Notes: a model not told the origin generated them from the letters alone. A DNA stretch of 64,000 nt from an uncultured delta proteobacterium (GCA_963706575.1 CAVPNL010000001.1:192001-256000), one strand, 5' to 3'; counted from the stretch's first letter, positions 15,453-43,186 are shown. Program-made: numbers and translations.

Positions 15453-15462
15453 GAGGAATTAG

Positions 15463-15960: not shown

Positions 15961-15999
15961 CTGACACCTTTCAGCTTACGGTTTTATTTTGGGTAAAAG

Positions 16000-16039
16000 A
16001 TAAAGGTTCCCGGTTAACCCGGGAGCCTTTATTTTTTTT
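16000..16039 (+). terminator. Rho-independent terminator
   Basis: ATAAAGGTTCCCGG-TTAAC-CCGGGAGCCTTTAT followed by a T-run. Confidence 0.8.
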
Positions 16040-16056
16040 GATGAAGAAATGAAACA

Positions 16057-22003: not shown

Positions 22004-22624
22004 TCATTTCTTTTGCGCGAGCAAAATCCGGTTATTCTTTTTGCGGGATTTTTCGATTTGCTTGTCTGTTCCCCAGCGCCTGAACAGATCGTGTTCGATG
22101 CCCATGTAGTCGAACACCTTGCCGATGGTCTGGTCGATGATATCTTCGATGGTCTCGGGTTGGTGGTAGAATGACGGCACCGGGGGCAATATGTGGGCGC
22201 CCATTTCGGCAGCCAGAGTCATCAGGCGAAGGTGTCCCACATGCAGCGGTGTTTCCCTGACCACCAGAACCAGTTTGCGCTTTTCTTTCAACGTCACATC
22301 CGCCGTCCGCACCAGCAGGTTTTCATTATAGGAATTGGCGATAGCGGAAAGCGATTTAATGGTACAGGGTATGACGACCATGCCTTCGGTCAAAAAGGAG
22401 CCGCTTGCCAGGGATGCGGCCATATCCTTATGATCGTAGACGAAATCCGCCATGGTTTCAACATCAGCTGGCTTGTAGCTGGTTTCGATTTCGATATTTA
22501 GCCGGCCGGCGTTGGAAATGATCAAATGGGTTTCGAAGTCCGTTTGCCGCAGCACGTCCAACATGCGTACCCCGTAAGTGACCCCGCTGGCCCCCGATAT
22601 GCCGATCACGATTCTTTTAGCCAT
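22004..22624 (-). CDS. ubiX: Flavin prenyltransferase
   Basis: GISGASG, ASGS, PCTIKSL, LKEKRKLVLVVRETP, PPVPSFY. Confidence 0.95.
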   Translation of the reverse strand: MAKRIVIGISGASGVTYGVRMLDVLRQTDFETHLIISNAGRLNIEIETSYKPADVETMADFVYDHKDMAASLASGSFLTEGMVVIPCTIKSLSAIANSYNENLLVRTADVTLKEKRKLVLVVRETPLHVGHLRLMTLAAEMGAHILPPVPSFYHQPETIEDIIDQTIGKVFDYMGIEHDLFRRWGTDKQIEKSRKKNNRILLAQKK

Positions 22625-22723
22625 TAATTTTTCCTTTTGGTTTAAAAACCTTATTTTTTTATATATGATTTTGGGTTAAATGAATATATTTTAACGTTTA
22701 TCCTCAGAATTTTTTTGACGAGA

Positions 22724-23113
22724 TCAAGTTTCAGAAGCAAGCCGGGCCAGAATCATCTCCACCAGGGTCTCAGTGTTGCGGACAACATGCTGGATGCCTT
22801 TAGGGGCAAGGTTGTCCCAGTGGATTCCGGCCGTGACAACGACCTGGGTTTTTAACGCAGCCGCCAGAATTTCGGCAGCGGCCTTGGCCAGTTCGTCTTC
22901 CTTGTGCCCCACCAGGCAGATAACGGATGCGCTGGAACTGGTAACATCCGGGTCTTTGAGACTCGGGCGCGGCTGGGCCACCGCCACCGCTCCGATATGC
23001 GGTTTTTCACCGCCCCAGATAGCCACCAGCACATCCTCGCCGATCAATCGGACGCTGGCGGACAGATTATAAGCATCTTCCTCGGTTTTTATAATAAATT
23101 CTTGGATTGTCAT
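22724..23113 (-). CDS. lpdD: Prenylated-flavin chaperone LpdD-like
   Basis: GGEKPHIGAVA, GHKE, AGIH motifs; adjacent to ubiX. Confidence 0.75.
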   Translation of the reverse strand: MTIQEFIIKTEEDAYNLSASVRLIGEDVLVAIWGGEKPHIGAVAVAQPRPSLKDPDVTSSSASVICLVGHKEDELAKAAAEILAAALKTQVVVTAGIHWDNLAPKGIQHVVRNTETLVEMILARLASET

Positions 23114-24325
23114 TTAAAAAATTTCCAACGCAGCGTTAACAACTGCCCGGGCAAAGGCTTCATCTTCCATGTGGGCCTGGACTTCGACAATTTGGATTTG
23201 AGAATTCAATTTTTCACGAAGCTCTTCGATAAAAATGCGATCCTCTTCGGGATTGTGTGTCGGGTTGCCCGGCATGTCCACGGACGACCACCCGTTAAGC
23301 GGTATCATCATTCTTACCGGGCCCGCGGCACGGTTCAGTTTTTCCGCAAATACCTGGGCCACTTTTTTTAATTCATCCGGTGAAATCCGCAGCCAGGTGC
23401 GAAATTTATCCAGATCGTATTTTGCGCGTTGATGGTGCTCGGGCGTATATCTGGATTTAGAAGGCGTAATATGATTTACACTGCAGGTGGCAATGATCTG
23501 AGGGATTCCAATCTTGCCGGCCGATTCCAGGCGATTGGGGCCCGCATCCCTCGTAAAACCGAACAGGTGTTCACCAACCCCTCCGGGCGCCAGATCGACG
23601 ACACCCTGAAATAATTTTTGGGAAATCATTTCCTCCATAGCGCGGTCGCAGATCCCGGCGGCATGGAAGCCGATGACCTGGTAGCCTGCTTTTTGCAATT
23701 CGGCCTGAACCCGACTGGCACATTCATCGCAGGGTCCCAGCATGGTCAGTGCGATGGCCGTACTTTTGCCCGTTCCGGGTGAAGTGACGTTGCCTTGAAC
23801 CATCCCGGCAAGGGCACAGGCTGCCCGATCAAAAACATTTTTAAGCAAATCCGAAAGCCCCGACAATTCGATGACCGAATGAAAAAGGATAATGTCACCG
23901 GTACCGATATAGCGGGTGGAAAGACCGGGGAGGGCCGCGGCCGAAGAAATCATCAATTTGGGAAAACCGAAGGGCAGGGACCGCATCACTTCAGTAACCA
24001 TCAGAGAGCCGGTGGCACCGCCCATGCCGGTAACCCCGTGGATTTTGCCTTCCACTTGCAGTTGCTTGGCGATGGTGGAGGCCCCCGCGATGGTGATGTT
24101 GGTTATCCGGGCGCGATCTTTCGACTGGCGGATGTCTTCAAAGCGGCTTCCCCCCGCTTCAGCCACACGATCCGGCAGAATATCGGCTTCCGAAGCCCCG
24201 TCACCGCGCATCGAAATATCCATTAGCAGGGCATTGAGCCCGAGCGACTCCACCTGCTCCTTGAGGTATAAGGTTTCTTCCCTTTTGGTATTCAGGGTAG
24301 AGATAATCAGAACAGTCTTTTTCAT
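23114..24325 (-). CDS. Tm-1-like ATP-binding domain protein (UPF0261)
   Basis: TLNTK, GMGGATGS, LPFGFPKLMIS, FHAAG, AEKLN. Confidence 0.85.
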   Translation of the reverse strand: MKKTVLIISTLNTKREETLYLKEQVESLGLNALLMDISMRGDGASEADILPDRVAEAGGSRFEDIRQSKDRARITNITIAGASTIAKQLQVEGKIHGVTGMGGATGSLMVTEVMRSLPFGFPKLMISSAAALPGLSTRYIGTGDIILFHSVIELSGLSDLLKNVFDRAACALAGMVQGNVTSPGTGKSTAIALTMLGPCDECASRVQAELQKAGYQVIGFHAAGICDRAMEEMISQKLFQGVVDLAPGGVGEHLFGFTRDAGPNRLESAGKIGIPQIIATCSVNHITPSKSRYTPEHHQRAKYDLDKFRTWLRISPDELKKVAQVFAEKLNRAAGPVRMMIPLNGWSSVDMPGNPTHNPEEDRIFIEELREKLNSQIQIVEVQAHMEDEAFARAVVNAALEIF

Positions 24326-24349
24326 CGGCTATATTTTAGTAAAGTGTTG

Positions 24350-24422
24350 CTCACGCAAAGCCGCTTAGCAAGTAAGGTTTAAAGCTAAAAATCTTCTTTG
24401 CGACGTTGCGTCTTTGCGTGAG
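24350..24422. repeat. Inverted repeat with octamer units
   Basis: CTCACGCAAAG...CTTTGCGA/CGTTGCGT/CTTTGCGTGAG. Confidence 0.7.
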
Positions 24423-24433
24423 GCCAATTAAGG

Positions 24434-26089
24434 TTAGGAACTTTCCTGTTTTACTTTCTCGGCGATTTCCTTTTTAAGCGTCTCTTTATTGACTTTTCCG
24501 GAATCGCCGACGGCCGGAAATTCGGACACGACCTCCAAGCGTTCCGGCAGTTTGAACATGGCCAGCTGTTTGCCCTTCAGGAATTCCACCATCTCATCGA
24601 AGGCAAAATCCTGGCCGGCTTTGGGTATCACATAAGCGCAGGCGCGTTCACCCATCTCTTTGTCAGGGTAGCCGACAATAGCCACCGAGGCCACCTTGGG
24701 GTGATCGTTTAACAATCCCTCGATTTCAGCCGGATAGATGTTTTGGCCGCCGCGAATAATCATGTCTTTTGAGCGGCCCAGAATCCACAGGCATTCCTGG
24801 TCGAATTTGACGATGTCTCCGGTGGTGGTCCAGCCATCGGGGTCGAATACCGTGGCGGTAAGCTCCTCATCACGGTAATAGCCGGCAGGCGCGTGGGGGC
24901 CTCTGAAATAGAGGATGCCGGGCTCTCCATCCGGCACTTTATTGCCGTCTTCATCCAACAGGCGTACCTTGTTGCCGGGCAGCATGCGGCCGACGGTTCG
25001 GCGTCTGAGGTCTTTGGTATCCTCCACCCGGCATCCGGATACCGAGCCCATATCCTGGGTGCCCAGGTCGCTGGTGATGACGGCACCGAAGGCCTGTTCT
25101 GCTTCTTCGGCAATCTGGGGTGAGAGGTAGCCGCCGGCAGAGCGAATAAAACGCAAAGAGCTTAAGTCATATTTGGAGGTGTCGCATTCCAGCATCCGCA
25201 CCAGGTGGGTGGGGACCACACCGATGGCAGTAGCCTTTTCTTTTTCTATCAGGGCCAGGGCGTCTTGCGGGACGAACTCTTCCAGCATGACTGTTTTGGC
25301 GCCGGCCAGCGGCGCTGCAAAGTAGGTCAGAGTTCCGGCTGCACCGCCGGCGTGCGGGGCAATCGCCATGGTAATATCATTGTTGTTCAGGCCCCAGATG
25401 CTCACGCGTCCCTTTGACGTGCAGACACGGGGGGCGGTAGGCCATTCCACCAGCTTGGGCAGCCCGGTGGTGCCGGAAGTGGTTGTCAGCAGGGCGACAT
25501 TCCAGAGCGGATCCAGTCGTCTTTCGTTAAGCACATTTTCATCAATGGGATTTTCAGCGGCCTCCCGGGCCAATTGGGTCAGAGAATAGGTGTTCTCCGG
25601 AGCTGAATCCGGCACGGTGTCGTCAAAAAGGAAAATATTTTTTAGATGCGGAAAGCGCTGTTGCAGGTCCTTATACATTTCAAGATAATCAAAATTGCGG
25701 TATTCATGAGGAATCACCACCGCTGTGGCTTCCGTTCTTTCTACCATGTATTCCAATTCTCTTTGACGCAGATACGGATAGACCGTCAGAGATATGAGGC
25801 CGGCTCTTTCGCTGGCAATTCTGGCCAGAAAGCCGTAAACACTGTTTGGGGACTGAATAATAATACGTGAATATTGCGGGATTCCCATTTGAACCCAGGT
25901 AGCGGCAATTCCGTCCACTAGGCGTTTGGCCTGCGCCCATGTCACGCGAAATTTGGAATCCACCAGCGCTTCCTGGTCGCCGTACTCGCGGGCATTTCTA
26001 TTCCAGAAGTCGTAAAAGAGCTCCTGGGTCCAGTATCCTTCGTTTAAAAATTCGTCCACCATCTCTTTTTGATAACGAATGGGTTTCAC
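24434..26089 (-). CDS. Aryl/alicyclic acid-CoA ligase
   Basis: TTSGTTGLPK, TTGD, GRSKDMIIRGGQN, ERAC, PERL; GTG start. Confidence 0.88.
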   Translation of the reverse strand: MKPIRYQKEMVDEFLNEGYWTQELFYDFWNRNAREYGDQEALVDSKFRVTWAQAKRLVDGIAATWVQMGIPQYSRIIIQSPNSVYGFLARIASERAGLISLTVYPYLRQRELEYMVERTEATAVVIPHEYRNFDYLEMYKDLQQRFPHLKNIFLFDDTVPDSAPENTYSLTQLAREAAENPIDENVLNERRLDPLWNVALLTTTSGTTGLPKLVEWPTAPRVCTSKGRVSIWGLNNNDITMAIAPHAGGAAGTLTYFAAPLAGAKTVMLEEFVPQDALALIEKEKATAIGVVPTHLVRMLECDTSKYDLSSLRFIRSAGGYLSPQIAEEAEQAFGAVITSDLGTQDMGSVSGCRVEDTKDLRRRTVGRMLPGNKVRLLDEDGNKVPDGEPGILYFRGPHAPAGYYRDEELTATVFDPDGWTTTGDIVKFDQECLWILGRSKDMIIRGGQNIYPAEIEGLLNDHPKVASVAIVGYPDKEMGERACAYVIPKAGQDFAFDEMVEFLKGKQLAMFKLPERLEVVSEFPAVGDSGKVNKETLKKEIAEKVKQESS

Positions 26090-26131
26090 AGGTATCCTCC
26101 CTTTGCGTGTTTAAATCGTTCTGTGGTAATG

Positions 26132-26662
26132 CTAGTCTTCCTCTTTTTTAGATGCGGCGCGTTTGGCCTTAAGACCGGCTTTAAATGTTTCCCAAAATTG
26201 CCTGTCGGTATCTTTCCAGGCCGCTCCCCAGCGTTTTTCGAAATAGGAAACCGGTAGACGGTCATGCCAGGACTTCCAGGGATCGCGGCCTTCCTTTTTT
26301 GCGATCAATACATCCGTCAAATAGTCAATAATGTTTGTCAGCTCTTCTTTGGGCAAATAAGACACCGCGCCCTCTTTGATCGATCGCACAAGATTATCCG
26401 GGCTCCAGGCATGCGCGGTCAGCATGACCGCCGGGATGTTTTTGCGGGTCGCAATTTCCAGCAGACCGTAACCGTCAACCCCCATAATATCCAGGATCAC
26501 CAGATCAAACGGTTGCGATTCCAGCATTTTCCGGGCTTCCTTAAATGAAGGCGCGGTTACCAACTTACACATCGGCAGTAAATCGACCAATGTGTCCAGA
26601 ACATCCTGCTCGTCGTCGACTGCCAGGACCCGTTTGCCATCCAATAACTTATGCTCTGCCAT
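26132..26662 (-). CDS. Response regulator receiver protein with short C-terminal extension
   Basis: AVDDE, LVILDIMGVDG, MLTAH, YLPK. Confidence 0.88.
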   Translation of the reverse strand: MAEHKLLDGKRVLAVDDEQDVLDTLVDLLPMCKLVTAPSFKEARKMLESQPFDLVILDIMGVDGYGLLEIATRKNIPAVMLTAHAWSPDNLVRSIKEGAVSYLPKEELTNIIDYLTDVLIAKKEGRDPWKSWHDRLPVSYFEKRWGAAWKDTDRQFWETFKAGLKAKRAASKKEED

Positions 26663-26735
26663 CTTTGCAGTTCCTTTTTACTTTTTTCTCTGCGGATTAT
26701 TGCCACAGATAACTCAGGTTTCGGAAAACAAATAA

Positions 26736-26816
26736 TATCCGCAGATTTTCGCAGATTAAAAAATTATTAATAAATCTCTTTTGTTCAATCCGTGTAATCT
26801 GCGTAATCTGCGGATA
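26736..26816. repeat. Inverted repeat with 9/10-mer units
   Basis: TATCCGCAGATT/TTCGCAGATT...AATCCGTGT/AATCTGCGT/AATCTGCGGATA. Confidence 0.75.
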
Positions 26817-26831
26817 AAAGCTTTTAATACG

Positions 26832-28238
26832 CTAAAGGCCTAGCTCAGACCATCTTGCCTGAACCTTTTTTACGATTTCCGGATCCAGCTCGATGGGAAT
26901 TGGCTTGTCTTTCCAGTCATAGGGAATCGTGGCATCCAGCAGGAGCCGGCCGGTAATCTCCCTGGCATTTATGGGAAGCGAGGGGTCAAGCGGTGTTGAT
27001 CTTCCGCGTTTAATCACCTGAGACCGGTTGGGCTGGAACCGGAAGCTCAGGGCATACATGACCCGCGGGATATCCCAGGGATCAATATCTTCATCCACGA
27101 CGATAACCGTCTTCAGTCCATAGGCACCCATCTCGGTAGAAATAGCCGCGGTCAGAACCTGATCGGCATGCCCGGGATACATCTGCTTCATGGAGATGAT
27201 GGCGAGAAACCGTCCGGATCCTTCCGGCGGGCAGTAAACCCCCTTCAAGCCCGGTATTTTCATGGCCAGCAGCTGCTGCCACAGGGTCGCGCCGTATGAA
27301 AGTGCCATGGTCATATGCGTGTCGGTGACTGCTCGGCCCACGGTGGTTCCCCATAAAATGGGGTTGTTTCTGTGGGTGACGCATTTGACATCGATGTAAT
27401 TGCGGGGATCCGTCCCCACCCCGGAATAATAGCCGGTATATTCTCCAAACGGCCCTTCTTCCATGAATTTATCGGCATCCACTTCACCTTCGATGACGAT
27501 TTCGGCATGAGCCGGTATGGGCAGATCCACGGTTTCTCCCTTCACCACTTCAACGGCTTCGCCTCGCAGAGCGCCGTACACATCATATTCCGATACAAAT
27601 GCAGATACACGGGCCGCCCCTAAGACAAAGAGCAGCGGGTCGCATCCGATCACCGAAGCCACCGGCATGGGTTTGCCCATGGCCTGGTATTTCTTCAGCA
27701 TGATGTCGGCGTGTTTTCCTTTGATGAACTGGGTGCCGATTTTGTCTTTCTCTAAAAGCTGGCTGCGGTAGGTCCCCAGATTCACCCATCCGCTCTCCGG
27801 ATCCTTGCTGATGATGAAATGGGCCGTACCGATATAGCGTCCGCCGTCAAGCGGATACCACTGGGGAACCGGGAATTTAAAAAGGTCGATTTGATCGCCG
27901 GTTAATATATTTTCTTTACACGGTGCGCTTGATGATGCCACTTCTTTAGGCGCTATCAAGTTTTCACCCAGCTTGGCCCATTCTTCATATAGATCCCCCA
28001 GCGTGGATTCAAGCGGCATGCCCATAATCAAAGCCAGTCGCTGGGTTGTGGTGCAGACACTGGTGATGACCGGCGTGTCGTAGTCTTTGACATTTTCAAA
28101 TAGGAGTGCCGGACCGCTTTGCTCTTCGTTAAGCTTGGCAATATGCGACAGCTCCAGGTTCCAATCGACTTCGGCCGTGATCCGTTTGCACAGACCCGTT
28201 TCCTCGCCTGCTGCAATAAAATCCCTCATGTCTTTCAT
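26832..28238 (-). CDS. ppcB: UbiD family (de)carboxylase, phenylphosphate carboxylase beta-like
   Basis: EVDWNLELSHIAKLNEE, NLGTYR, EGPFGEYTGYY, VVDEDID, LDPS; downstream of pps genes; AGGAGG before ATG 28238. Confidence 0.8.
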   Translation of the reverse strand: MKDMRDFIAAGEETGLCKRITAEVDWNLELSHIAKLNEEQSGPALLFENVKDYDTPVITSVCTTTQRLALIMGMPLESTLGDLYEEWAKLGENLIAPKEVASSSAPCKENILTGDQIDLFKFPVPQWYPLDGGRYIGTAHFIISKDPESGWVNLGTYRSQLLEKDKIGTQFIKGKHADIMLKKYQAMGKPMPVASVIGCDPLLFVLGAARVSAFVSEYDVYGALRGEAVEVVKGETVDLPIPAHAEIVIEGEVDADKFMEEGPFGEYTGYYSGVGTDPRNYIDVKCVTHRNNPILWGTTVGRAVTDTHMTMALSYGATLWQQLLAMKIPGLKGVYCPPEGSGRFLAIISMKQMYPGHADQVLTAAISTEMGAYGLKTVIVVDEDIDPWDIPRVMYALSFRFQPNRSQVIKRGRSTPLDPSLPINAREITGRLLLDATIPYDWKDKPIPIELDPEIVKKVQARWSELGL

Positions 28239-28288
28239 AAAACATTTCCTCCTTTTCAAATTAATAAAATTGCCTTTGGTTAATATAT

Positions 28289-29356
28289 TTACGGAATCTT
28301 AATTCGTTTCATAGCCTGTTCCATCAAGAGCTGGCGGCCGCTTTTAGCGCCAATGACGGATTGCGTCTTGCGCTGGCTCCATACGGTTTCCGGGCGGGCC
28401 TGAACAATAAACATGTTTTCCGGAAACGGGATATCTTTATCAATGGCCCATTCGATATCCATGGGGCGGCCGTAATGGTTTTCGATATTTTTAGCAGCGC
28501 TGACCAGCGCTTTGATTTCGTCATCGGCCAGGCAGCAGGTGCACTGCATATCTTCAGCGACATCCGCGTCGACGGTTTCCCCTTTTTCCAGATCATAGAC
28601 ACATTCGATGTGTTTGGTTGATATGGTCCTTTCATTGATTTCCAGCATGACCTTATCGACCACAAATTTATCCGGGTTGACAGAACCGGAAACCACGGTT
28701 TCGCCCAGTCCCCAGCTGCCCTCGATGAGGACCTTGGAAATATCACCGTTGGTCGGGTTCAGCGTAAACATAACCCCGGCGGCTTTTGAATTGACCATTT
28801 TCTGAATGCCTACACTGATGAGGACCTTGTCATGGGGAAAGTCGTTCTTAATGCGGTAAGCGATTGCGCGGGGGGTATATAAGCTGGCCCAGCAATTCTG
28901 AACTTTGCGGATAATCTGATCCGCTCCCTGAATCCAGAGATAGGTGTCCTGCTGACCGGCGAAGCTGGCGGTGGGTAAATCTTCAGCGGTCGCGCTTGAG
29001 CGCACCGCTACGGGAATCGATTCCACGGCACATTTTTCACACAGTCCGGAATATCCATCCTTGATGGCCTCGCTGACAGCATCCGGCATTGGGGTCTTTT
29101 TGATTAACGCCTGCACGTCGGCGCTGGCATTATTGAGGGCCGCCACATCATCGGGGTTCAGATCGGAAACCCTATCGATAATCCGGGTTTTAATATCGGC
29201 ATCGGTAATGAATAATAAATAACTGTCAGTAGTTACCGCAAATCCGGGCGGGACCCGAATAGCGGCTTTGATCATTTCTCCCAGGCTGGCATTCTTGCCG
29301 CCGACAATGGGGATTGAATTTTTATCCAGTTTTTCGAAATCCAGGATATAATCCAT
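28289..29356 (-). CDS. ppsB: Phenylphosphate synthase beta-like (stand-alone ATP-grasp domain of the PEP synthase family)
   Basis: GGKNASLGEM, VAVRSSATAED, SFAGQQDT, DIEWA, VQARPET. Confidence 0.82.
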   Translation of the reverse strand: MDYILDFEKLDKNSIPIVGGKNASLGEMIKAAIRVPPGFAVTTDSYLLFITDADIKTRIIDRVSDLNPDDVAALNNASADVQALIKKTPMPDAVSEAIKDGYSGLCEKCAVESIPVAVRSSATAEDLPTASFAGQQDTYLWIQGADQIIRKVQNCWASLYTPRAIAYRIKNDFPHDKVLISVGIQKMVNSKAAGVMFTLNPTNGDISKVLIEGSWGLGETVVSGSVNPDKFVVDKVMLEINERTISTKHIECVYDLEKGETVDADVAEDMQCTCCLADDEIKALVSAAKNIENHYGRPMDIEWAIDKDIPFPENMFIVQARPETVWSQRKTQSVIGAKSGRQLLMEQAMKRIKIP

Positions 29357-29381
29357 ATTTGCTTCCTTCATAGCCTACCAT

Positions 29382-29414
29382 CTGAAACCCCCTCCCTAAG
29401 GGAAGGGGTTTCAG
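29382..29414. other. Intergenic stem-loop between ppsA and ppsB
   Basis: CTGAAACCCCCTCCC-TAA-GGGAAGGGGTTTCAG. Confidence 0.65.
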
Positions 29415-29487
29415 CATGGAGGCTCAATTTGCATGGTCCAGATTGGCACTAAAGGCTAAAGCTTTTCAGGATAACCGCGTAAAGTGG

Positions 29488-31344
29488 TTAGCCTGCTCGT
29501 TTAACAATCTCGACCACCCCGCTGTCGCCGTCCACTTTGACGATATCGCCGGTTTTGATCACCGATGTGGATATCCCGGTGCCGGTAACAGACGGTACGC
29601 CATACTCACGGCAGACGATGGCGGCGTGGCTGGTCAGTCCGCCAATGTCAGTCACCGCGGCTTTGATTTTGGTAAACACGGGTGCCCAGGACGGATTGGT
29701 GGACGGGCAGACCAGGACCTCACCGGGCTGCAAATCCACAATGTCTTTGAGCCGTTTCAGCACACGGGCCGGGCCCTCGGCGAGACCGGCCGAAGAGGCG
29801 AAACCTTTGATTTCAGAAACATCCTCGCCTGCGGTTGCGTCGACACCCTTGAGCCATTCTTTCACTTTATCCGTGGTGATACCCCACAGCATAATCGTAA
29901 AAGGTTCGGCCACTTCTTCGGGCGGGACGCCCAGAGCCGGGATGGGGTTCCAGTTGCCGGCGGCTTCAAGGATTTTTTTGCGCTTTTCGGCTTTAGCTTT
30001 ATAGTAGTCTCCTCGCATGGGGATATCCACACCCAGCGCCCAGCCGGTTGACACTTCGGTCAGCAGTTGCGGAATTTCATAGCGGTTAAACATAAAGATG
30101 TCATCGACTTCGTTTAACATCCCGTTGTTAACCAGCAGTGTTCCCAATTCTCTGATCTTGGCAAACCAGATGGTGTGGAACCAGTGCTCAACCCAGAAGA
30201 GGTGATCCTCGGCGTATGTATAAATGGTTCTGACCGTGTTGTAAGCATCATCAAAGGCTTTTCGATCGTCGTCGGTTTTGATGAGTTTGCGATATTCGGC
30301 CACAATTTCATCTCTTTGTTTTTCAATCTCATCCAGTGAGCGCTCGATGTTCTCGCCGTTTTCCAGCCGTTCGACATAGCCTTTAATGTAACTGTAAGGA
30401 ATGGACGGATCGGTCAGCCAGCTGCCCTCATAATGAAACCAGCCGCTGCCGCAGGATACATAAAACCACGGGTCTTTGGCTTTCTCATACTCTGCCAGCC
30501 AATTTTTTCCATTCTCTGTGTTTTGAAGTTCGGCGACCTTGTCTTCCACCGACTTGTCACTCTTGAGAATAGCGGAAACTTCCTTGGCGGAAGCCGCCAT
30601 TTTGGAAAGGCGGCAAAGCTCTTCTTCAGGCTTGAACATGGATACATAGGCGCCGGCCACCATTTTGCCGATGGCACTTTCACTGATACCGGGAAAAAGC
30701 TTGCGGGCGACATCGGCAAACATCAGATAGGCCAGGTAGGTCAGGTTCAGCATCTCGAAATGATACTGCCAGCCCTTAAACATCTGGTTGACCAGTTTGT
30801 CAAAGGACTCAATCAAATAGTAACTGTCGTACACCCCGGTGGGCGCCGGCAGCACCTGATCCTCGGGAACATATTTCGGCAATTCGCTGGGGACCCTCAC
30901 CGCGGCCATTTCTTCGCCGAGCGCTTTAAACTTGGTCAACCATTTGTCCCAGAGTTCATTATAATGTTCAAATACATAAAATACGCGTTTTTCAAAATAC
31001 CCGGCTTTCTCACCGATGATTTCTTCCGGTGGCGGGGCGATAGCGCAGATGTACATGTAACATCCCACCATTCGTTGGGCGATTCCCTGTGCCGGTGGAA
31101 TACAGAATACGCGGGTGGTATACTGTGACAGGGAAATCTGCCAGGCTTCCTGAAAAATCAAATCCAGTGGCGGCATGGGCTCCGGGGCATGGATTTTGTC
31201 CTGATACCAGAATTGGGCCTTTTCCCAATCTGATCTGTCTTCTGAAAACAGGTGGTGGGAGGGGTACATTTCTTCCCAGCCTTCAAGTTCAGGAGGGACC
31301 TGAAACTCATGCGGGTCCGGGAATCTTCCAGATTGATCGGTCAT
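29488..31344 (-). CDS. ppsA: Phenylphosphate synthase alpha-like (substrate domain plus phosphohistidine swivel)
   Basis: GWEEMYP N-terminus; C-terminal TDIGGLTSHAAIVCREYG phospho-His motif. Confidence 0.82.
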   Translation of the reverse strand: MTDQSGRFPDPHEFQVPPELEGWEEMYPSHHLFSEDRSDWEKAQFWYQDKIHAPEPMPPLDLIFQEAWQISLSQYTTRVFCIPPAQGIAQRMVGCYMYICAIAPPPEEIIGEKAGYFEKRVFYVFEHYNELWDKWLTKFKALGEEMAAVRVPSELPKYVPEDQVLPAPTGVYDSYYLIESFDKLVNQMFKGWQYHFEMLNLTYLAYLMFADVARKLFPGISESAIGKMVAGAYVSMFKPEEELCRLSKMAASAKEVSAILKSDKSVEDKVAELQNTENGKNWLAEYEKAKDPWFYVSCGSGWFHYEGSWLTDPSIPYSYIKGYVERLENGENIERSLDEIEKQRDEIVAEYRKLIKTDDDRKAFDDAYNTVRTIYTYAEDHLFWVEHWFHTIWFAKIRELGTLLVNNGMLNEVDDIFMFNRYEIPQLLTEVSTGWALGVDIPMRGDYYKAKAEKRKKILEAAGNWNPIPALGVPPEEVAEPFTIMLWGITTDKVKEWLKGVDATAGEDVSEIKGFASSAGLAEGPARVLKRLKDIVDLQPGEVLVCPSTNPSWAPVFTKIKAAVTDIGGLTSHAAIVCREYGVPSVTGTGISTSVIKTGDIVKVDGDSGVVEIVKRAG

Positions 31345-31528
31345 TTTCTTCCTCCTTTCGGTGGTGGGTTAAAGATGCGTTGCGAGAAAAATGTTGCATG
31401 CAAATCATTTAATAGGCTTTCGGTCGGAGGAACTGAAACTCAGAAAGGAACTCAGAGTCAGTTGAGGTGAGAGCACAGAAGCCTGAAATTAAATAAGATT
31501 TATTTTCTATGAAGGAATTAAATAAATC

Positions 31529-31572
31529 TGTCAATCCAATTTAATTTATGTTATGCATAACTTTTAGTTATG
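31529..31572 (-). promoter_or_regulatory. LysR box and -35 of the pps operon
   Basis: CATAAC-TTTTA-GTTATG (T-N11-A) 21 bp from minus-strand TTGACA. Confidence 0.7.
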
Positions 31573-31607
31573 GATAAATTTGACCTATAAAAAAAAGTAA
31601 GGATGCC

Positions 31608-32594
31608 ATGTTGAATTTTAACCAGTTCCGTGTCTTTTATTATGCCGCCAAAAACTTGAATTTCACCGTTGCCGCCGGAGAGCTGTTCATTACCCAGCCG
31701 GCCGTTACCTCTCAGATCAAATCGTTCGAGGAGTTTTGCAACCTGAAGCTGTTTAAAAAAAGAGGACGCCGGATCTACCTGACAGATGAGGGCAAATCTC
31801 TTTATGTGCATGCGGCCAAAATTTTTAAATATGAAAAAGAAATCGAACACATCATTGATGATATGCGTGAACTCAAGCGCGGAATCCTCAGTTTAGGGAC
31901 GACGAAAGCTTACGCGCGTTATTTTATGCCGCTGATGATCACCACGTTTCATAAAAACTATCCCAACATTAAAATACAGCTGAACGAAGGCAGTTCACTG
32001 GAAATGATCCACAGTTTGCTGGATTTTAAAATAGAGGTGGCGGTGATTGCCAGGACAGAAGATAACCCGGAGGTCCATTTTCTCCCGTTTAGCCGGGAAG
32101 AAATGGCGGTCATCGTTTCAACGGATCATCATTTGAGCAGGGAAAAAGCGACCACCTTTAAAGCGCTGTCTGCAGAACCCTTTATTATGAAAGAAAAAGG
32201 CTCAGGGACGCGCAAGCTGGTGGAAGAATTATTTGAAGCCGAGCAATGCACGCCTGACATTTTGATGGAAACCAGCAATACCGAGTTCATCAAACAGCTG
32301 GTGCAGCGCGGAGAAGGGGTTTCGTTTGTCGTGCGGGAAGCGGTTGCCGCCGAACTGAAAGAAAAGAAGCTGATTGCCGTTCCCCTGAAAGACCCAACAG
32401 TGTATCTGGATGTCAGCATTGCCTACCTGAAAGGCCAGGTGCTTTCGCCGCCGGCCAGAGCCTTTGTCGATACCTTAATCGGTTTGAAGTCAGACGATTT
32501 GCACCCCATGGGAATCGGTCTGATGATGGCCAAAATGCTTACCCAGCGCAAGGAGGAGCAAAGAAAAATTTCGAAAATGAGGAAGTCCATATGA
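31608..32594 (+). CDS. LysR family regulator
   Basis: NFTVAAGELFITQPAVTSQIK HTH, LTDEG; divergent from ppsA. Confidence 0.95.
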   Translation: MLNFNQFRVFYYAAKNLNFTVAAGELFITQPAVTSQIKSFEEFCNLKLFKKRGRRIYLTDEGKSLYVHAAKIFKYEKEIEHIIDDMRELKRGILSLGTTKAYARYFMPLMITTFHKNYPNIKIQLNEGSSLEMIHSLLDFKIEVAVIARTEDNPEVHFLPFSREEMAVIVSTDHHLSREKATTFKALSAEPFIMKEKGSGTRKLVEELFEAEQCTPDILMETSNTEFIKQLVQRGEGVSFVVREAVAAELKEKKLIAVPLKDPTVYLDVSIAYLKGQVLSPPARAFVDTLIGLKSDDLHPMGIGLMMAKMLTQRKEEQRKISKMRKSI

Positions 32595-33190
32595 GCGATC
32601 GACCTGTTTTCAAGCAAATTTATCAACTTGCCCAACCGTATCTAAACACGCGCTACAATGATGTCCACACTGAGATGTCCATGCAGCTTGCATACCAACT
32701 GCTAAGTGCCGAGGGAGGTCAGGAAAGTATTGTGATTCCGGCTATCATTCTGCACGATGTCGGCTGGCAAAAAGTTCCGGTAGCGCTTCATCTGAAGGCA
32801 TTTGGTCCTAAGGCAACCTCACCGGAGATAAACAGGACTCACGAGAAAGAAGGCGTAAAGATCGCCCGAAAAATTTTAACAGAGATTAATTATGATAAGG
32901 AAAAAATTACTGAAATACTCAAAATTATTGACGGCCATGATTCCAGAAAAAATTCTATTTCGTTAAATGATCGGATCGTTAAAGACGCAGACAAGCTCTG
33001 GCGCTATACTCAAAAAGGGTTTGAGGTAGACAACAATCGATTTGAAGAGACCGTCGCTGAAGGATTAAACCGCCTGCGCAAATATTTAGCCAGGTGGTTT
33101 TATACGGATACGGCCTTTCAAATCGCAAAAGATGAACTCCAACAGCGGGAAAGAGAAGCTGACAATGATTCGAGGCTGGCCGGTAATTAG
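32591..33190 (+). CDS. HD domain phosphohydrolase
   Basis: VHT...LHDVGW...HEKEG...HD...VKDADKL; ATGA overlap with lysR. Confidence 0.85.
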   Translation: MSDRPVFKQIYQLAQPYLNTRYNDVHTEMSMQLAYQLLSAEGGQESIVIPAIILHDVGWQKVPVALHLKAFGPKATSPEINRTHEKEGVKIARKILTEINYDKEKITEILKIIDGHDSRKNSISLNDRIVKDADKLWRYTQKGFEVDNNRFEETVAEGLNRLRKYLARWFYTDTAFQIAKDELQQREREADNDSRLAGN

Positions 33191-33716
33191 TCGTGAGCAG
33201 GTTGGGGATTTTGGGCTCTTTTCATTGATTCAAAAAACGGTGCGCTCAGCACGCACGGGCGAAATCAGAGAGGTGCAGGCGATCCAATTTCCAGACTGGG
33301 TGTTGGTCCTTGCACTCACGCCGCAAGAGGAAGTCGTGATGGTGCGTCAATTCCGCCACGGCACCGAGCAGGTCTGTTTGGAGTTGCCCGGCGGGTTGGT
33401 GGATTCGGGTGACGATTCACCCGAATTATCCGCTCAGCGGGAACTGCTGGAAGAGACCGGATATCAAGCCGATGAAGTTGTACTTCTGGGAGAATGTTGC
33501 CCGCAGCCGGCGGTTTTGACCAATAAATGTCTTTTTTATCTGGCCCAAAATGCTGTCCGGGTTCAAACCCAGAACCTGGATGCCGGTGAGGATATCGAAA
33601 TTTTGGAAGTTCCTTTAAAAGAGATTGCGGCTAAAATCAGAAACGAGGAAATCGATCACGGCATGGTGCTATTGGCCTTCTTCTATTTCTGGATGAAACA
33701 GGGGCAGATGGGATAG
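33165..33716 (+). CDS. NUDIX hydrolase (ADP-ribose pyrophosphatase-like)
   Basis: VRQFRH, ELPGGLVD...AQRELLEETGY. Confidence 0.9.
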   Translation: MIRGWPVISREQVGDFGLFSLIQKTVRSARTGEIREVQAIQFPDWVLVLALTPQEEVVMVRQFRHGTEQVCLELPGGLVDSGDDSPELSAQRELLEETGYQADEVVLLGECCPQPAVLTNKCLFYLAQNAVRVQTQNLDAGEDIEILEVPLKEIAAKIRNEEIDHGMVLLAFFYFWMKQGQMG

Positions 33717-33722
33717 AAAAAT

Positions 33723-35093
33723 ATGCAGCCTGCTACGCCTGAGCACCTGCCAAATATTTTATCGTTTAAGCGTCGTCTGTTTCTTGGTTTCCTGTTGAGT
33801 ATCATTCCTATCCTATTCATTGCCGGCGCGGTATCCATTCCATTTTATTTTGAATCTTCCACGATTCTCTATAAATTCGGATCTGACAGGCAGCTTTTGC
33901 GTTCGGGTCAAGTGGTGGGAATGGTTGCCGGGTGTCTGCTGCTGTTGCAAATCATCCTGGGCGCGCGTTTGAAATTTCTTGATCGGGTCTTCGGTCTTAG
34001 CAATCTTTTCAGGTTTCATCGTATTTCCGGTTTCAGCATTGCCTTTCTGATTAGCCTACATCCCATCCTGATATTCATTCCCGAAAACAGGATTTTCATT
34101 CCGCTTAAATTGCGCTACTGGCCTGAATTTGTCGGCCTCCTTCTTTTGTTGCTGATTATCTTCACATTGATTTCCAGCCATTGGCGGGCCCGGCTGGGGC
34201 TCTCCTTTCACCGCTGGTGGACAATTCATCGATGGACGGCCGTCTTGATCGTCATTACCTTTTGGGTTCATGTATCATCTGTCAGTGATACTTTCGAGCA
34301 GAAGCTGCCACAAATGCTTGCTTTCTGCGCAATGGGCTTCTGCGGGCTGTTATTTTTCTCGATCAGAATCCGCCCCTTAAGAAACCGCCGAAGATCTTTT
34401 CTGGTTTCAACGATTGAACCGGTTGGAGAAGATGCCATGTGTCTGGAGATTATCTCAAAGACAAAGAATAAATTTAGTTATCTGCCGGGCCAGTTCAGTT
34501 TCTCCACTTTTTTCTCGAACCATATTTCAAGGGAGGAGCATCCTTTCTCTTTGACCTCCACTCCCACAAGGACTTCCTGCCTTCAATTTATTGTTCGCAC
34601 CACTGGCGATTGGACACCTAAATTAAAAAATCTTCAGCCGGGAGACCGTGTTTTGCTGAATGGCCCTTTTGGACTGTTCAGTCATTTGCAGCTTCCCGCA
34701 AAAAACGAGATCATAATGATCGCAGGCGGGATTGGCATAACCCCGATGTTGAGTATGCTGCGGTATATGGCCGACTGCAATGATCAGCGCAAAATCACGC
34801 TGATATGGAGCAATCAAACCCGAAAGCATATCATCTTCCCGGATGAGTTCCAGAGCCTGGAAGCCCAATTAAAAGGGCTTCGCATCTTTCATGTCCTGAC
34901 CAGAGATCCTGAATTCTGGGGTGAAGCGGGGCGATTGGATAAACACAAGCTCAAAATGCTCCTTTCAGATTGTAGTCAATCATCGGCCATATTTGTCTGC
35001 GGCCCCCATCAAATGATGAAAGAAGTGCGCCGCTGCCTTGTTTCCCTTAATTTTTCGAAACATTTGATTTTCATGGAGCGATTCAGCTTATAG
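33723..35093 (+). CDS. Ferric reductase-like membrane protein with FAD/NAD-binding domain
   Basis: TM helices with paired His; EEHPFS, GDWT, GPFG, IAGGIGITP, VCGP, ERF. Confidence 0.88.
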   Translation: MQPATPEHLPNILSFKRRLFLGFLLSIIPILFIAGAVSIPFYFESSTILYKFGSDRQLLRSGQVVGMVAGCLLLLQIILGARLKFLDRVFGLSNLFRFHRISGFSIAFLISLHPILIFIPENRIFIPLKLRYWPEFVGLLLLLLIIFTLISSHWRARLGLSFHRWWTIHRWTAVLIVITFWVHVSSVSDTFEQKLPQMLAFCAMGFCGLLFFSIRIRPLRNRRRSFLVSTIEPVGEDAMCLEIISKTKNKFSYLPGQFSFSTFFSNHISREEHPFSLTSTPTRTSCLQFIVRTTGDWTPKLKNLQPGDRVLLNGPFGLFSHLQLPAKNEIIMIAGGIGITPMLSMLRYMADCNDQRKITLIWSNQTRKHIIFPDEFQSLEAQLKGLRIFHVLTRDPEFWGEAGRLDKHKLKMLLSDCSQSSAIFVCGPHQMMKEVRRCLVSLNFSKHLIFMERFSL

Positions 35094-35226
35094 TCCCTCA
35101 GCGTTGACATAAGCCACACCATACTTATATCTAAAATGAGCGTTTGAAATTTTAAAAATGGGGATACATCTTTATTCCAGAGGAATGCTATCGATTTATA
35201 TTTTTAAAATTTAAAACCCCTACGGG

Positions 35227-35326
35227 GATTGCCGATCTTACCGCATCTACCGCGTCAGATGCCGTTTCGCATAGTCAACTATAGCGGAACGACATCTTCC
35301 TTGTAGCTGCGGCAACCTCGACAATC
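35227..35326. repeat. Long nested palindrome (REP/MITE-like or structured RNA)
   Basis: Stems GATTGCCGA/TCGACAATC, CCGCATCTAC/GTAGCTGCGG, AGATGCCGTTTCGC/GCGGAACGACATCT, ATAG/CTAT. Confidence 0.65.
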
Positions 35327-35381
35327 GCTCAATTTAGATCTAATGATGAGCCTTTCAAATTTTAAAAGCAGGAGAAAACTC

Positions 35382-35975
35382 ATGCAAAAGACGGTTTCCA
35401 TATTTGTTGCGGTATTGGCTGTACTTCTAATTGATAGCTTTGCATTTGCAGAGGCAGAAAAATGGGAAATTGATAAAGCCCATTCAAATATCTACTTTGA
35501 TGTGAAACATACGTATGCCACCGTAAGAGGAAAGTTCGACGATTTTTCAGGCACGTTAAAATTTAATCCGGACAACCTGGCACTGAGCAGTGTAAAGTTT
35601 GAGGTCAAAACCAAAAGCATTAATACGGGTATTCCCAACCGTGATAATCATCTTCGGTCAGAAGAATTTTTCTCAGTGAACAAATATCCCTTCATGACCT
35701 TTGAATCTACAGATGTAAAACTGAAGAAAGGCAATCAATACACTTTAGAGGGAAATCTCACTATCAAAGGAAAAACAAATAATGTGGCTTTCCCATTCAC
35801 TTATTTCGGAACGCGTGAGAACCCGCTGAAAAAGGGAAAAACGGTTGCCGGTTTCGAAACCCGATTTTCCATTGATCGCCTGGAATACGAGGTCGGACCT
35901 GGAAAATACGCTGCAATGGGTATTATTGGAAGAAATGTTGATGTTTTAATTACACTTGAGGTACTCAAAGAATAA
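35382..35975 (+). CDS. YceI family protein
   Basis: Signal peptide; WEIDKAHS, RDNHLRSEEFF, GNLTIKG. Confidence 0.92.
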   Translation: MQKTVSIFVAVLAVLLIDSFAFAEAEKWEIDKAHSNIYFDVKHTYATVRGKFDDFSGTLKFNPDNLALSSVKFEVKTKSINTGIPNRDNHLRSEEFFSVNKYPFMTFESTDVKLKKGNQYTLEGNLTIKGKTNNVAFPFTYFGTRENPLKKGKTVAGFETRFSIDRLEYEVGPGKYAAMGIIGRNVDVLITLEVLKE

Positions 35976-36176: not shown

Positions 36177-37124
36177 ATGATCAATCTTAATCAGCTCAGG
36201 GCATTTTATCAGGCCGCAAAATGTCAGAATGTGAGCCTGGCGGCCAAGGAGTTATTTGTCAGTCAGCCGGCGGTTACGGCACAGATAAAGCTGTTTGAAG
36301 AAAACTGTGGCCTGAAGCTTTTTAAAAAAAAAGGCCGCAACCGCTATCTTACCGACGAAGGCAAAACACTCTTCAATTACGCCCGAAAGATCTTCGAATA
36401 TGAAAAGAAAATCGAAGATGCTGTCGAGCAGATGAAGGAATTAAAGAAAGGCAGCCTTCGATTAGGCTCGGCCCGGACTTACGCCCGTTACTTCATGCCT
36501 TTTTTACTCACCGGATTCCGTGACGCTTACCCGCAGATTAAAATTCATTTCGATGAAGGCAGTTCCCTGGAAATGATCAACAGCCTGATCGATTTGAAAA
36601 ACGAAGTGGTGATCATCGCCAGAGCCGATGATCATCCGAACATTGCCTTCATTCCTTTCAGCCGGGAGGAACTGGTGCTCATATTACCGCCCAATCATCC
36701 TTTGGCAGATAAAGATAGCATCCGTTTTGAACAAATCGCCGCCGCGCCCATTATCATGAAAGACCCGGGTTCCGGGACCCGCAAACTGGTAGACGAATTA
36801 TTCGCTAAAAATAATTGTACGCCCAATATTTTGATGGAAACCGGGGACGCTGAAATCATCAAGCTGCTGGTGCAGCATGGAGAGGGGGTCTCGTTTCTGG
36901 TGAAAGAGGCAGCGGCCGTCGAACTGCATGAAAAAAAACTGGTCACCGTTCCTTTGAAGAAACATTCAATTTTCTTAGATGTCAGTATCGCTTACCTCAG
37001 GCAGCAGCCGCTTTCACCTGCTGCAAAGGCGTTTCTAAAGAGTCTGGAGAATTTAGGGACTAAGAAAATGCGTTTCCAGGGGATGGGCGCCCTGATGGCA
37101 AAAATGCTTGCCGATGAAAGATGA
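36177..37124 (+). CDS. LysR family regulator (paralog of 31608-32594)
   Basis: SQPAVTAQIK HTH; shares YARYFMP, EGSSLEMI, GSGTRKLV with the first LysR. Confidence 0.95.
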   Translation: MINLNQLRAFYQAAKCQNVSLAAKELFVSQPAVTAQIKLFEENCGLKLFKKKGRNRYLTDEGKTLFNYARKIFEYEKKIEDAVEQMKELKKGSLRLGSARTYARYFMPFLLTGFRDAYPQIKIHFDEGSSLEMINSLIDLKNEVVIIARADDHPNIAFIPFSREELVLILPPNHPLADKDSIRFEQIAAAPIIMKDPGSGTRKLVDELFAKNNCTPNILMETGDAEIIKLLVQHGEGVSFLVKEAAAVELHEKKLVTVPLKKHSIFLDVSIAYLRQQPLSPAAKAFLKSLENLGTKKMRFQGMGALMAKMLADER

Positions 37125-40042: not shown

Positions 40043-40128
40043 TTTTATAAACCTCCAATTTTATTTATTCGGTTATAAATGGATATCGGACTTCATATAC
40101 GCTATTTTATGAGCGGGTTTGATGATTA

Positions 40129-40172
40129 AGTCAATTCATATGATTTTATAAAAAATATAAGTTTTTCTTATA
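40129..40172 (-). promoter_or_regulatory. LysR box and -35 upstream of the Mo/W enzyme
   Basis: TATAAG-TTTTT-CTTATA (T-N11-A) 21 bp from minus-strand TTGACT. Confidence 0.65.
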
Positions 40173-40184
40173 GGATGCTGCCTC

Positions 40185-40239: not shown

Positions 40240-40282
40240 CGGCGTGTCAGGTAAAGTCAAGTTAAGCAGAACATATTCTTCC

Positions 40283-42037: not shown

Positions 42038-42041
42038 TTTT

Positions 42042-43166: not shown

Positions 43167-43186
43167 ATGCATCTCCTTTTCACAAT

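Follow-up and report, generated by a model that had tools for sequence, protein, structure and literature searches.

An operon encoding a two-protein phenylphosphate synthase (PpsA and PpsB), one UbiD-family carboxylase of the PpcB clade, a stand-alone receiver, an AMP-forming ligase, a UPF0261 (Tm-1-like) protein, an LpdD-like protein and UbiX was found in a 64,000-nucleotide stretch of DNA (the window) from an uncultured delta proteobacterium (GCA_963706575.1, CAVPNL010000001.1:192001-256000). By annotation and protein length its parts are those of the known phe-type cluster of Desulfatiglans anilini, and the layout is not a new minimal system; the operon probably encodes the strict-anaerobe route of that type, which would convert phenol, or a very closely related phenolic compound, to a para-carboxylated product activated with coenzyme A (CoA). 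What is new here is a swap of modules: the same PpsA, PpsB and receiver are paired either with a canonical PpcB/D/A/C carboxylase or with a single UbiD.

The window is situated on a 527-kb contig (C1) of a 5.67-Mb genome assembly in 25 contigs, with 91.81% completeness and 6.39% contamination; genes called absent from this genome are genes that were not found in it. Protein domains were called with Pfam and NCBIfam profiles, and NCBIfam cut-offs are given beside the scores. The loci compared are from metagenome-assembled genomes (MAGs) of related taxa, which as kin give counts that are not independent and that describe a pattern without testing it. A reading of the sequence alone (the sequence-only reading) had given the gene order as ppsA-ppsB-ppcB-receiver-ligase-Tm-1-like-lpdD-ubiX opposite a LysR gene, in agreement with the domain assignments and with the positions of the open reading frames (ORFs): eight consecutive ORFs occupy 31344 to 22004 on the minus strand, and lysR (31608-32594) diverges from them on the plus strand. 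The same reading had stated that the operon lacks a CBS-domain ppsC, a second UbiD and the gamma and delta carboxylase subunits, and this was upheld by a scan of 51 window ORFs, in which no CBS domain of the PpsC-type gamma subunit was detected, and by the intervals of 0-169 bp between operon genes, which are too short to hide a gamma subunit of 80 amino acids (aa).

The phe-type operon and its single carboxylase

The same list of parts has been reported for the phe cluster induced by phenol in D. anilini (H567DRAFT_02049-02059; PMC6114531 and Table S1 of PMC7500099), with which the operon was compared by annotation, length and gene content rather than by sequence alignment. As listed there, the cluster comprises a PaaK-type ligase (02049, 443 aa), a CheY-like receiver (02050, 175 aa; 176 aa in the operon), Pps-beta (02051, 358 aa; 360 aa), Pps-alpha (02052, 615 aa; 618 aa), Hcr-type reductase genes (02053-02055; 783 aa for 02053), UbiX (02056, 193 aa; 206 aa), UPF0261 (02057, 403 aa in both), a '2,3-DHB-AMP ligase' (2,3-dihydroxybenzoate, DHB) marked 'function unknown' (02058, 552 aa; 551 aa) and Ppc-beta (02059, 468 aa in both). 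By annotation and length the two clusters share PpsA and PpsB, one PpcB, the receiver, the DhbE-type ligase, UPF0261 and UbiX, and all lengths but that of UbiX agree within 0-3 residues. The D. anilini cluster differs in having 4-hydroxybenzoyl-CoA reductase genes and the PaaK-type ligase gene inside it, and its receiver gene follows ppsB, whereas the operon has an LpdD gene that is not among the genes reported for the phe cluster in these sources. A cluster whose only ppc gene is a ppcB homologue has also been described for Geobacter metallireducens, as told in PMC6114531, and the suggestion of the sequence-only reading that the operon is a minimal or unusual system is not supported in view of these precedents.

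Induction of the D. anilini proteins is documented by the mass-spectrometry areas listed for replicate 1 in PMC7500099. Ppc-beta reaches 1.8e10 on phenol and about 1e9 on the other three substrates, ligase 02058 1.26e10 against 0.66-0.85e9 (about 15-fold), the receiver 6.0e9 compared with about 0.7-1.1e9, UPF0261 2.5e9 compared with no more than 5e7, and UbiX 3.9e7 against 0. The receiver, UPF0261 and 'DHB-AMP ligase' are 5- to 50-fold up on phenol, as are, several-fold, all the phe proteins listed.

With PpsABC and PpcABCD of Thauera aromatica the operon shares a two-protein His-dependent dikinase, a PpcB-like UbiD, a nearby UbiX and the logic of para-carboxylation. The Thauera system differs in having a CBS-type PpsC, PpcA, a gamma subunit and a HAD-type delta subunit, whereas the operon has UPF0261, LpdD, the receiver and the DhbE-type ligase instead; this departure from the Thauera layout, to which the sequence-only reading had drawn attention, extends to the whole genome, where PpcA, PpcC and PpcD were likewise not found. 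PpsC is described in PMC6114531 as stimulating phenylphosphate synthase and not as essential to it. The cluster of the ORM2 benzene paper, as that account (PMC13101534) presents it, is unrelated.

PpsA (29488..31344, minus strand, 618 aa) scores 865 bits against NF006153 (cut-off 578), and one full-length copy was found in the genome. Its PEP-utilizers swivel domain (residues 539-609, 83.6 bits, Pfam) is C-terminal, beside the substrate domain. The predicted phospho-carrier, His573 in the motif GGLTSH, is invariant in 29/29 aligned orthologues and matches in position the His569 and His571 cited in PMC7500099. PpsB (28289..29371, minus strand, 360 aa), the ATP-binding subunit, has a PPDK_N domain (400 bits) at residues 21-340.

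The carboxylase gene (26832..28259, minus strand) encodes three UbiD domains (Pfam), and its product is placed in the PpcB clade by a score of 513.5 bits against TIGR02724 phenyl_P_beta (cut-off 468.95); against the alpha model, TIGR02723 phenyl_P_alpha, it scores 232.9 and does not reach the cut-off of 564.6. Read from a TTG at 28259 the protein has 475 aa, and from the likely true start, an ATG at 28238, it has 468 aa, as do most orthologues. These share 73-95% identity, and N153, R158, H176, E217 and E261-x4-E266 are invariant in 28/28 sequences; from work on Fdc1, these residues are taken to have metal-binding and catalytic roles. With its three domains, conserved metal and E-x4-E residues and UbiX partner, the protein has the features of a UbiD-family enzyme dependent on prenylated flavin mononucleotide (prFMN). 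A quick maximum-likelihood tree of 33 sequences, in which long branches are unsure, places it in a tight clade of 18 (91 in the Shimodaira-Hasegawa-like approximate likelihood ratio test), which adjoins, while remaining separate from, a starred group of canonical PpcB, ani-type UbiDs and a third set, with PpcA far off.

Three UbiD-family genes are present in the genome, and the two outside the operon are 27-29% identical to the operon UbiD; one is accompanied by aldehyde oxidoreductase and ABC-transporter genes and the other belongs to a set of old-yellow-enzyme, Fe-S and ligase genes. Neither matches TIGR02723 at E 1e-30 or better, and their unrelated contexts and scores under both the alpha and beta cut-offs rule them out as a hidden PpcA. 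When a canonical PpcA of the same order was searched against the genome with tblastn, the best match was the operon UbiD (37%); that protein and the canonical PpcB of the same order share only 48% identity. The gamma model TIGR02725 phenyl_P_gamma has no match in the genome, a result weak alone, as the model is also silent in every control genome, and tblastn with a gamma-like PpcC of the same order gave no hit. The genome likewise has no match at E <= 0.001 to the delta model (HAD/KdsC-like) TIGR02726 phenyl_P_delta, and no tblastn hit to a delta-like PpcD of the same order. The sequence-only reading had allowed that the missing subunits might be encoded elsewhere; PpcA, PpcC and PpcD were searched for throughout this 91.81% complete genome and not found. 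D. anilini differs in this respect: its genome is described (PMC6114531, PMC7500099) as lacking PpcC and as having PpsC-, PpcA- and PpcD-like genes outside the phe cluster, and neither its PpcA-like UbiD nor its KdsC-like delta subunit has a counterpart that was found in the source genome.

Occurrence of the cluster and exchange of the carboxylase module

Among 8000 scored candidates, 1763 relatives of PpsA were found at E <= 0.001; the best 120 of these are 83-98% identical to the operon protein, and the named ones are from Desulfobacterales, Desulfobacteraceae and Deltaproteobacteria MAGs. A scan of species genomes gave 340 PpsA relatives, the best 80 of which are at loci with 72-96% identity in Desulfobacterales, Desulfosarcinaceae, Desulfatiglandales and Desulfatiglandaceae MAGs and in an Olavius-associated Delta 1 MAG. 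In the Desulfatiglandaceae and Desulfatiglandales loci, PpsA is 75-81% and UbiD 79-81% identical to the operon proteins. Because the arrangement recurs among these best 80 of 340 loci from other genomes, it is far beyond what would be expected by chance. In 33 loci with at least 8.5 kb of DNA downstream of ppsA, ppsB was found in 30, ubiD and ubiX in 28 each, upf in 27, the receiver in 24, the ligase in 18 and lpdD in 17, and the full gene order of the window in 6. The ligase and Tm-1-like (UPF0261) genes, which the sequence-only reading had singled out as present in place of the missing subunits, are thus conserved parts of the cluster. Metagenomes from estuaries, sediment and marine sediment contain near-identical DNA.

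In a survey that sampled 401 genomes of the order evenly, PpsA (E <= 1e-100) is present in 70 and UbiD (E <= 1e-120) in 68. The PpsA proteins of the order fall into a group 77-93% identical to that of the operon and a group 40-46% identical, with intermediates at 62% and 66%. Three loci with a divergent PpsA of 41-43% identity (L100, L102 and L105) encode a UbiD 77-86%, a ligase 76-81% and a UPF0261 protein 62-65% identical to those of the operon, as well as UbiX. Locus L104, also with a divergent PpsA, has ubiD, a subtype-B UPF0261 gene, lpdD and ubiX and no ligase gene; L103 (PpsA 62%) has ubiD, ligase, UPF0261, lpdD and ubiX genes; and in L106 ubiD alone is visible before the contig ends. 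The single-UbiD version is a stable and widespread module in Desulfobacterales and Desulfatiglandales MAGs.

In three clusters of the order (L131, L132/L133 and L134) a canonical carboxylase is found beside PpsAB and the receiver family. The PpsA of L131 is 80% and that of L133 66% identical to the operon PpsA, and L134 has only a ppsB-like gene in the region. L131 encodes PpcB (653 bits), PpcA (695 bits; cut-off 564.6), a delta-like protein (129 bits, below the cut-off) and a gamma-like protein (43 bits), together with an additional UbiD, UbiX and a PaaK-type ligase; L132/L133 and L134 resemble it. The canonical ppcBDAC cluster of L131 ends with a small gene (G087:C61, 1715-2131, minus strand) resembling an archaeal CTP-dependent riboflavin kinase (70 bits; cut-off 168).

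UPF0261, LpdD and the DhbE-type ligase were found in 0/3 canonical clusters within the regions examined. A UPF0261 ORF is present in 26/28 single-UbiD clusters (one of the others, L095, has the gene by tblastn only, and L072 has none) and in 5/6 single-UbiD loci with a divergent or intermediate PpsA. Type-A UPF0261 (at least 61% identity) occurs in 49/401 genomes, 46 of which also hold the UbiD orthologue by hand comparison; those without it are G085, G234 (71% complete) and G008 (60% complete).

Proposed pathway, likely substrate and possible role of UPF0261

In the likely route from phenol, PpsB would bind ATP and load His573 of PpsA, which would phosphorylate the phenolic hydroxyl group (ATP to AMP and Pi), as expected from the family and the conserved histidine. 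The single PpcB-clade UbiD would then carboxylate the aryl phosphate, with reduced prFMN (prFMNH2) made by UbiX and presumably delivered by the LpdD-like chaperone; the DhbE-family AMP ligase would convert 4-hydroxybenzoate to its CoA ester, and Hcr-like reductases encoded elsewhere on the same contig could dehydroxylate 4-hydroxybenzoyl-CoA. Phenylphosphate formation has been measured in D. anilini extracts (PMC6114531). With the LpdBCD and VdcBCD decarboxylases the operon shares the trio of UbiX, UbiD and an LpdD-like protein (the operon UbiD scores 316 bits against VdcC; cut-off 650), but unlike them it is coupled to a dikinase and a ligase, and because of this coupling the direction of carboxylation is implied.

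The ligase (24434..26089, minus strand, 551 aa) has AMP-binding and AMP-binding_C domains, scores above the cut-off of no NCBIfam equivalog and is probably a 4-hydroxybenzoate-CoA ligase. Its best solved relative is DhbE (1md9, E=1.2e-72). The residues N235 and S240 of DhbE are those that bind the 2,3-dihydroxy groups; at N235, Y236 and S240 the operon ligase has Gly, Ala and Thr (hand-counted from the 1md9 alignment), which is not the dihydroxy-binding set. Six HcrA-like paralogues are encoded on contig C1 (at 116330, 261988, 279764, 427054, 472168 and 502060), with scores of 626-775 bits, all under the cut-off of 994. The contig is also rich in PaaK-type and DhbE-type ligases and looks like a large island of aromatic-acid catabolism.

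The substrate is most likely phenol; cresols and other phenols are possible, and aniline is unlikely. That the same chemistry serves another substrate (cresol, catechol, hydroquinone or aniline), with the ligase tuned to the matching acid, is in our judgement improbable. It would be in keeping with the solved relatives of the ligase, the best of which are DHB- and salicylate-AMP ligases, with the narrow margin by which UbiD passes the PpcB cut-off (513.5 against 469), and with the second PpsA type, to which the operon PpsA is only 40-46% identical and which occurs with the same UbiD module, suggesting that specificity can vary; PasAB of D. anilini are also reported in PMC7500099 to accept both aniline and phenol in vitro. 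Against it stand the identity of 73-95% among the UbiD orthologues of many genera, which points to one conserved substrate, and the residues just described in the ligase. Phenol, moreover, induces the D. anilini cluster composed of the same parts, and aniline, 4-aminobenzoate or benzoate do so far less, according to PMC7500099.

Aniline was judged by comparison with ani-type clusters. The ani cluster of D. anilini resembles the operon in having a dikinase, one UbiD in the cluster, UPF0261 and an AMP ligase, and its published order is Pas-beta, UPF0261, acyl-CoA synthetase, Pas-alpha, Ppc-beta (PMC7500099). A genome of the same order as the source has a cluster (L130) in this order (ppsB-like, UPF0261, ligase, PasA-like and UbiD genes, with ubiX slightly further away), and its proteins are, in that sequence, 42, 42, 41, 27 and 53% identical to those of the operon. 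Within D. anilini the phe and ani clusters differ to the same degree, with 26.7% identity between Pps-alpha and Pas-alpha and 51.7% between the two Ppc-beta proteins, as given in PMC7500099, and since the identities of 27% and 53% mirror these values the operon falls on the phe side. The ani-type clusters are thus a separate lineage and aniline was rejected as an unlikely substrate; of the other substrates named in the sequence-only reading, aniline and catechol are not supported. A hydroquinone or catechol route through an ortho-hydroxy acid was set aside on the weak argument that the ligase is without the hydroxyl-binding residues of DhbE.

The UPF0261 gene (23114..24325, minus strand) encodes a MarK-related nucleotide-binding protein of 403 aa (UPF0261 N 172 bits, C 229 bits), which aligns over its full length with MarK (Saro_1862, PDB 9MPY; 9mpy_A, E=4.1e-56). 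MarK is described in PMC12624787 as an ATP-to-ADP kinase for phenolic hydroxyl groups and as the sole characterised UPF0261 enzyme; it differs from the operon protein in that its partner, in the aerobic catabolism of acetovanillone, is a biotin carboxylase and not a UbiD. The operon protein keeps the ATP-site lysine (K14, kept in 15/15 type-A sequences), the glycine whose backbone binds the phenolic oxygen (G197) and a histidine (H221). At the position of MarK H348 the type-A proteins have Val or Ala (Val in the operon copy), and F283 and I285 of MarK are His and Thr in the operon copy (hand-counted from the alignment). Three subtypes were distinguished: subtype A (58-93% identical to the operon copy) is always beside a ligase gene; subtype C (46-48%) has a ligase neighbour that is 45-46% identical to that of the operon in L050, L066 and L087 and 87% in L060; and subtype B (31-38%) occurs in clusters without a ligase and has Arg at the Lys position in 14/15. 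A search among longer UPF0261 forms for fusions gave one match, joined to an ABC ATPase and uninformative.

We tentatively suggest, as the least certain step of the pathway, that UPF0261 takes the place of PpcA, PpcC and PpcD in function, serving the single UbiD as a partner that depends on nucleotides and handles phosphoryl groups. The suggestion is made because UPF0261 is present where PpcA, PpcC and PpcD are absent (26/28 and 5/6, against 0/3 canonical clusters), because in D. anilini on phenol UPF0261 equals PpsB in abundance and exceeds UbiX about 64-fold (PMC7500099), and because the family moves phosphoryl groups between ATP and phenolic oxygens. In a more specific form, which is possible if doubtful, UPF0261 would take over the phosphoryl role of PpcD and make PpcA and PpcC dispensable, and carboxylation would be nucleotide-dependent. 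This would explain why carboxylation was never reconstituted from D. anilini extracts assayed without nucleotides (among the components noted for the carboxylase assay in PMC6114531 there is no nucleotide or CoA), and part of the ATP spent on phenol activation might be recovered.

A different role for UPF0261 would follow if it and LpdD served cofactor supply and the single UbiD carboxylated phenylphosphate alone: UPF0261, outside the main pathway, might make the dimethylallyl phosphate used by UbiX by phosphorylating a prenyl alcohol, or aid anaerobic prFMN maturation. We hold this to be unlikely, despite the company that the gene keeps. The LpdD-like protein (22724..23113, minus strand, 129 aa; PAC_bac PF21758, 129.7 bits) matches the structure of Lactiplantibacillus plantarum LpdD (8pzh, E=1.7e-6), a prFMNH2-binding chaperone (PMC10865409), and is by sequence a member of that chaperone family; UbiX (22004..22624, minus strand, 206 aa) is a flavin prenyltransferase with 263 bits against NF004685 (cut-off 188). 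The upf, lpdD and ubiX genes are contiguous, the lpdD start codon follows immediately on the UPF0261 stop codon, and the gap between the two is zero or negative, with stop and start touching or overlapping, in 10/19 related loci. Clusters without a ligase keep a UPF0261 gene of another subtype directly before lpdD, one UbiX (a single tblastn hit) and one LpdD were found in the genome for three UbiD genes, and the canonical cluster of L131 has by its ppc genes the different small kinase-like gene described above (riboflavin-kinase-like, 70 bits, below the cut-off). A metagenome protein in which LpdD is fused to a Nudix domain (P0123, below) could also be read in this way from its motifs. Other observations speak against cofactor supply. 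The 64-fold abundance of UPF0261 over UbiX in D. anilini on phenol would fit a pathway protein better than an enzyme of cofactor synthesis; the D. anilini ani cluster has UPF0261 between the Pas-beta and ligase genes (03868, 03869, 03870), with no ubiX seen there in the published gene list; and canonical PpcABCD needs prFMN too, yet UPF0261 or LpdD is present in 0/3 of its clusters.

Two fusions were noted when longer LpdD forms were searched for. P0122, a 313-aa metagenome protein, joins an LpdD-like domain to the receiver family of the operon (67% identity to the operon receiver in that part) and comes from a single 1.5-kb contig, possibly by read-through. P0123 joins an LpdD-like domain to a Nudix domain that by its motifs looks isopentenyl-diphosphate-isomerase-like; it is from one short contig, on which a read-through artefact is possible, and is unrelated to the NUDIX protein encoded beside lysR (E=0.07). 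The NUDIX and HD genes by lysR were considered as suppliers of dimethylallyl phosphate and rejected, being kept in only 12 and 5 of 45 loci.

The receiver (26132..26662, minus strand, 176 aa; Response_reg 46 bits) is CheY-like, with a conserved Trp-rich C-terminal extension. Its acidic pair, phospho-acceptor Asp, Thr and Lys are present (D16, D17, D58, T82 and K105, invariant in 29/29 sequences), and a structure model has the CheY fold (mean predicted local distance difference test score, pLDDT, 83.5). Seven further paralogues, 41-59% identical including the C-terminal extension, are encoded in unrelated catabolic clusters of the genome (C1:184933, C1:355688, C1:99795, C1:101023, C6:657074, C6:657782 and C9:248581), among whose members are an amidohydrolase together with a ligase, an aminotransferase, MttB alongside a TRAP transporter, and DUF294 alongside a penicillin amidase; an internal TAG is present in one paralogue. 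Receivers with a Trp-rich tail thus appear as a family, as yet uncharacterised, of stand-alone receivers associated with catabolic operons, and that of the operon may be a phosphorylatable accessory or regulatory protein of this multi-copy family. That it substitutes for the HAD-type delta subunit, or accepts phosphate specifically from PpsA, became highly improbable in view of the seven paralogues in unrelated clusters and of the absence of the receiver from 7/7 divergent-PpsA loci and several type-1 loci.

A number of points weigh against the single-UbiD route and against UPF0261 as its partner. The carboxylation step by one UbiD in phe-type clusters is a proposal. In D. anilini extracts, phenylphosphate was not converted with bicarbonate or CO, Mg, Mn and K, for which the authors blamed oxygen (PMC6114531); aniline carboxylation in vitro needed two UbiD subunits, and D. 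anilini also induces its PpcA-like UbiD on phenol (both PMC7500099). A second PpcA- or PpcB-like UbiD was not found in the source genome by profiles or tblastn. Orthology to the phenol-induced proteins of D. anilini is argued from annotation, length, gene content and the named Desulfatiglandales MAG loci. Exceptions to the association of genes are L128, which has the UbiD orthologue without the other cluster genes, and L136, in a closed MAG, with a lig-upf-lpdD-ubiX block and no UbiD. The residues G195, H219 and H304 are reported to be more than 90% conserved among MarK homologues (PMC12624787), but of this aromatic-site set type-A UPF0261 keeps only the glycine throughout: the H304 position is Leu in 15/15 sequences and the H219 position is His in 5/15 and Ser in 10/15. 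The UPF0261 type tracks the presence of the ligase and not the UbiD subclade. Finally, UPF0261 is a general kinase-like family for which aromatics are not the sole context, since the paralogues in the genome are found in sugar-acid and other contexts: of six UPF0261 genes, four lie within 30 kb on contig C9 (295586-324109; L137 and L138), beside genes for a RuBisCO-like protein and a class II aldolase, a PEP-hydrolase-like TIM-barrel partner, dehydratases and an HD protein.

Regulation, neighbouring genes and wider meaning

The LysR-type regulator (31608..32594, plus strand, 328 aa; HTH_1 and LysR_substrate domains) would control transcription of the operon, and a divergent LysR gene is present within 600 bp of ppsA in 41/57 related loci with enough upstream DNA. 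The intergenic region between lysR and ppsA contains a palindrome, ATAAC-N5-GTTAT (31557..31571), a candidate LysR box that occurs once in the window (0.02 expected) and recurs exactly, among other genomes, in L089 only. No sigma-54-like site was detected in this intergenic region, and the promoter, terminator and sigma-54 scans were all at or below chance. Parts of the operon are represented in RNA-library contigs from 3 studies (4 runs), although such contigs cannot prove transcription or operon structure; some pieces (runs X16 and X17) have 0 or 1 differences in 180-350 nucleotides.

Several other gene clusters were noted in the window. Downstream of lysR (32591-35975, plus strand) are genes for an HD phosphohydrolase, an ADP-ribose-pyrophosphatase-like NUDIX protein, a ferric-reductase-like membrane flavoprotein and YceI. 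A second operon (37829-46888, minus strand), with a second lysR (36177-37124, plus strand), encodes a UPF0261 paralogue (40283-41491) that is 33% identical to the first, a DhbE-like ligase, a reductase of the old yellow enzyme family, a BadH-like short-chain dehydrogenase/reductase (263 bits, below the cut-off), an acyl-CoA dehydrogenase, a flavin reductase and a molybdopterin oxidoreductase, and looks like another aryl-acid-CoA pathway; UPF0261 copies are also present upstream of lysR in many related loci. At 49641-55140 (plus strand) a DhbE-like ligase (401 bits against DHB_AMP_lig, under its cut-off) precedes a three-subunit enzyme of the xanthine dehydrogenase family, the FAD subunit of which has about 50 aa inserted within FAD_binding_5, as the 4-hydroxybenzoyl-CoA reductase beta subunit does; this enzyme scores only 370 bits against the HcrA model (cut-off 994). 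A protein of the tungsten-type aldehyde:ferredoxin oxidoreductase family (646 aa), a 4Fe-4S protein and a 474-aa ORF that matches neither Pfam nor NCBIfam are encoded at 13512-17481 (plus strand), with an IclR regulator beside the cluster.

The pathway to which anaerobic phenol breakdown in sediments has been ascribed was established in a denitrifier. Those iron- and sulfate-reducers studied so far are, in the published accounts cited here, without most of the carboxylase of that pathway, and those accounts report no carboxylation in extracts of D. anilini. The comparison of single-UbiD clusters with canonical clusters of the same order names UPF0261, LpdD, the ligase and the receiver as candidates for the missing functions. 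An open biochemical question is thereby reduced to a short list of candidates for reconstitution, which bears on the use of UbiD enzymes for the fixation of CO2 onto phenols.

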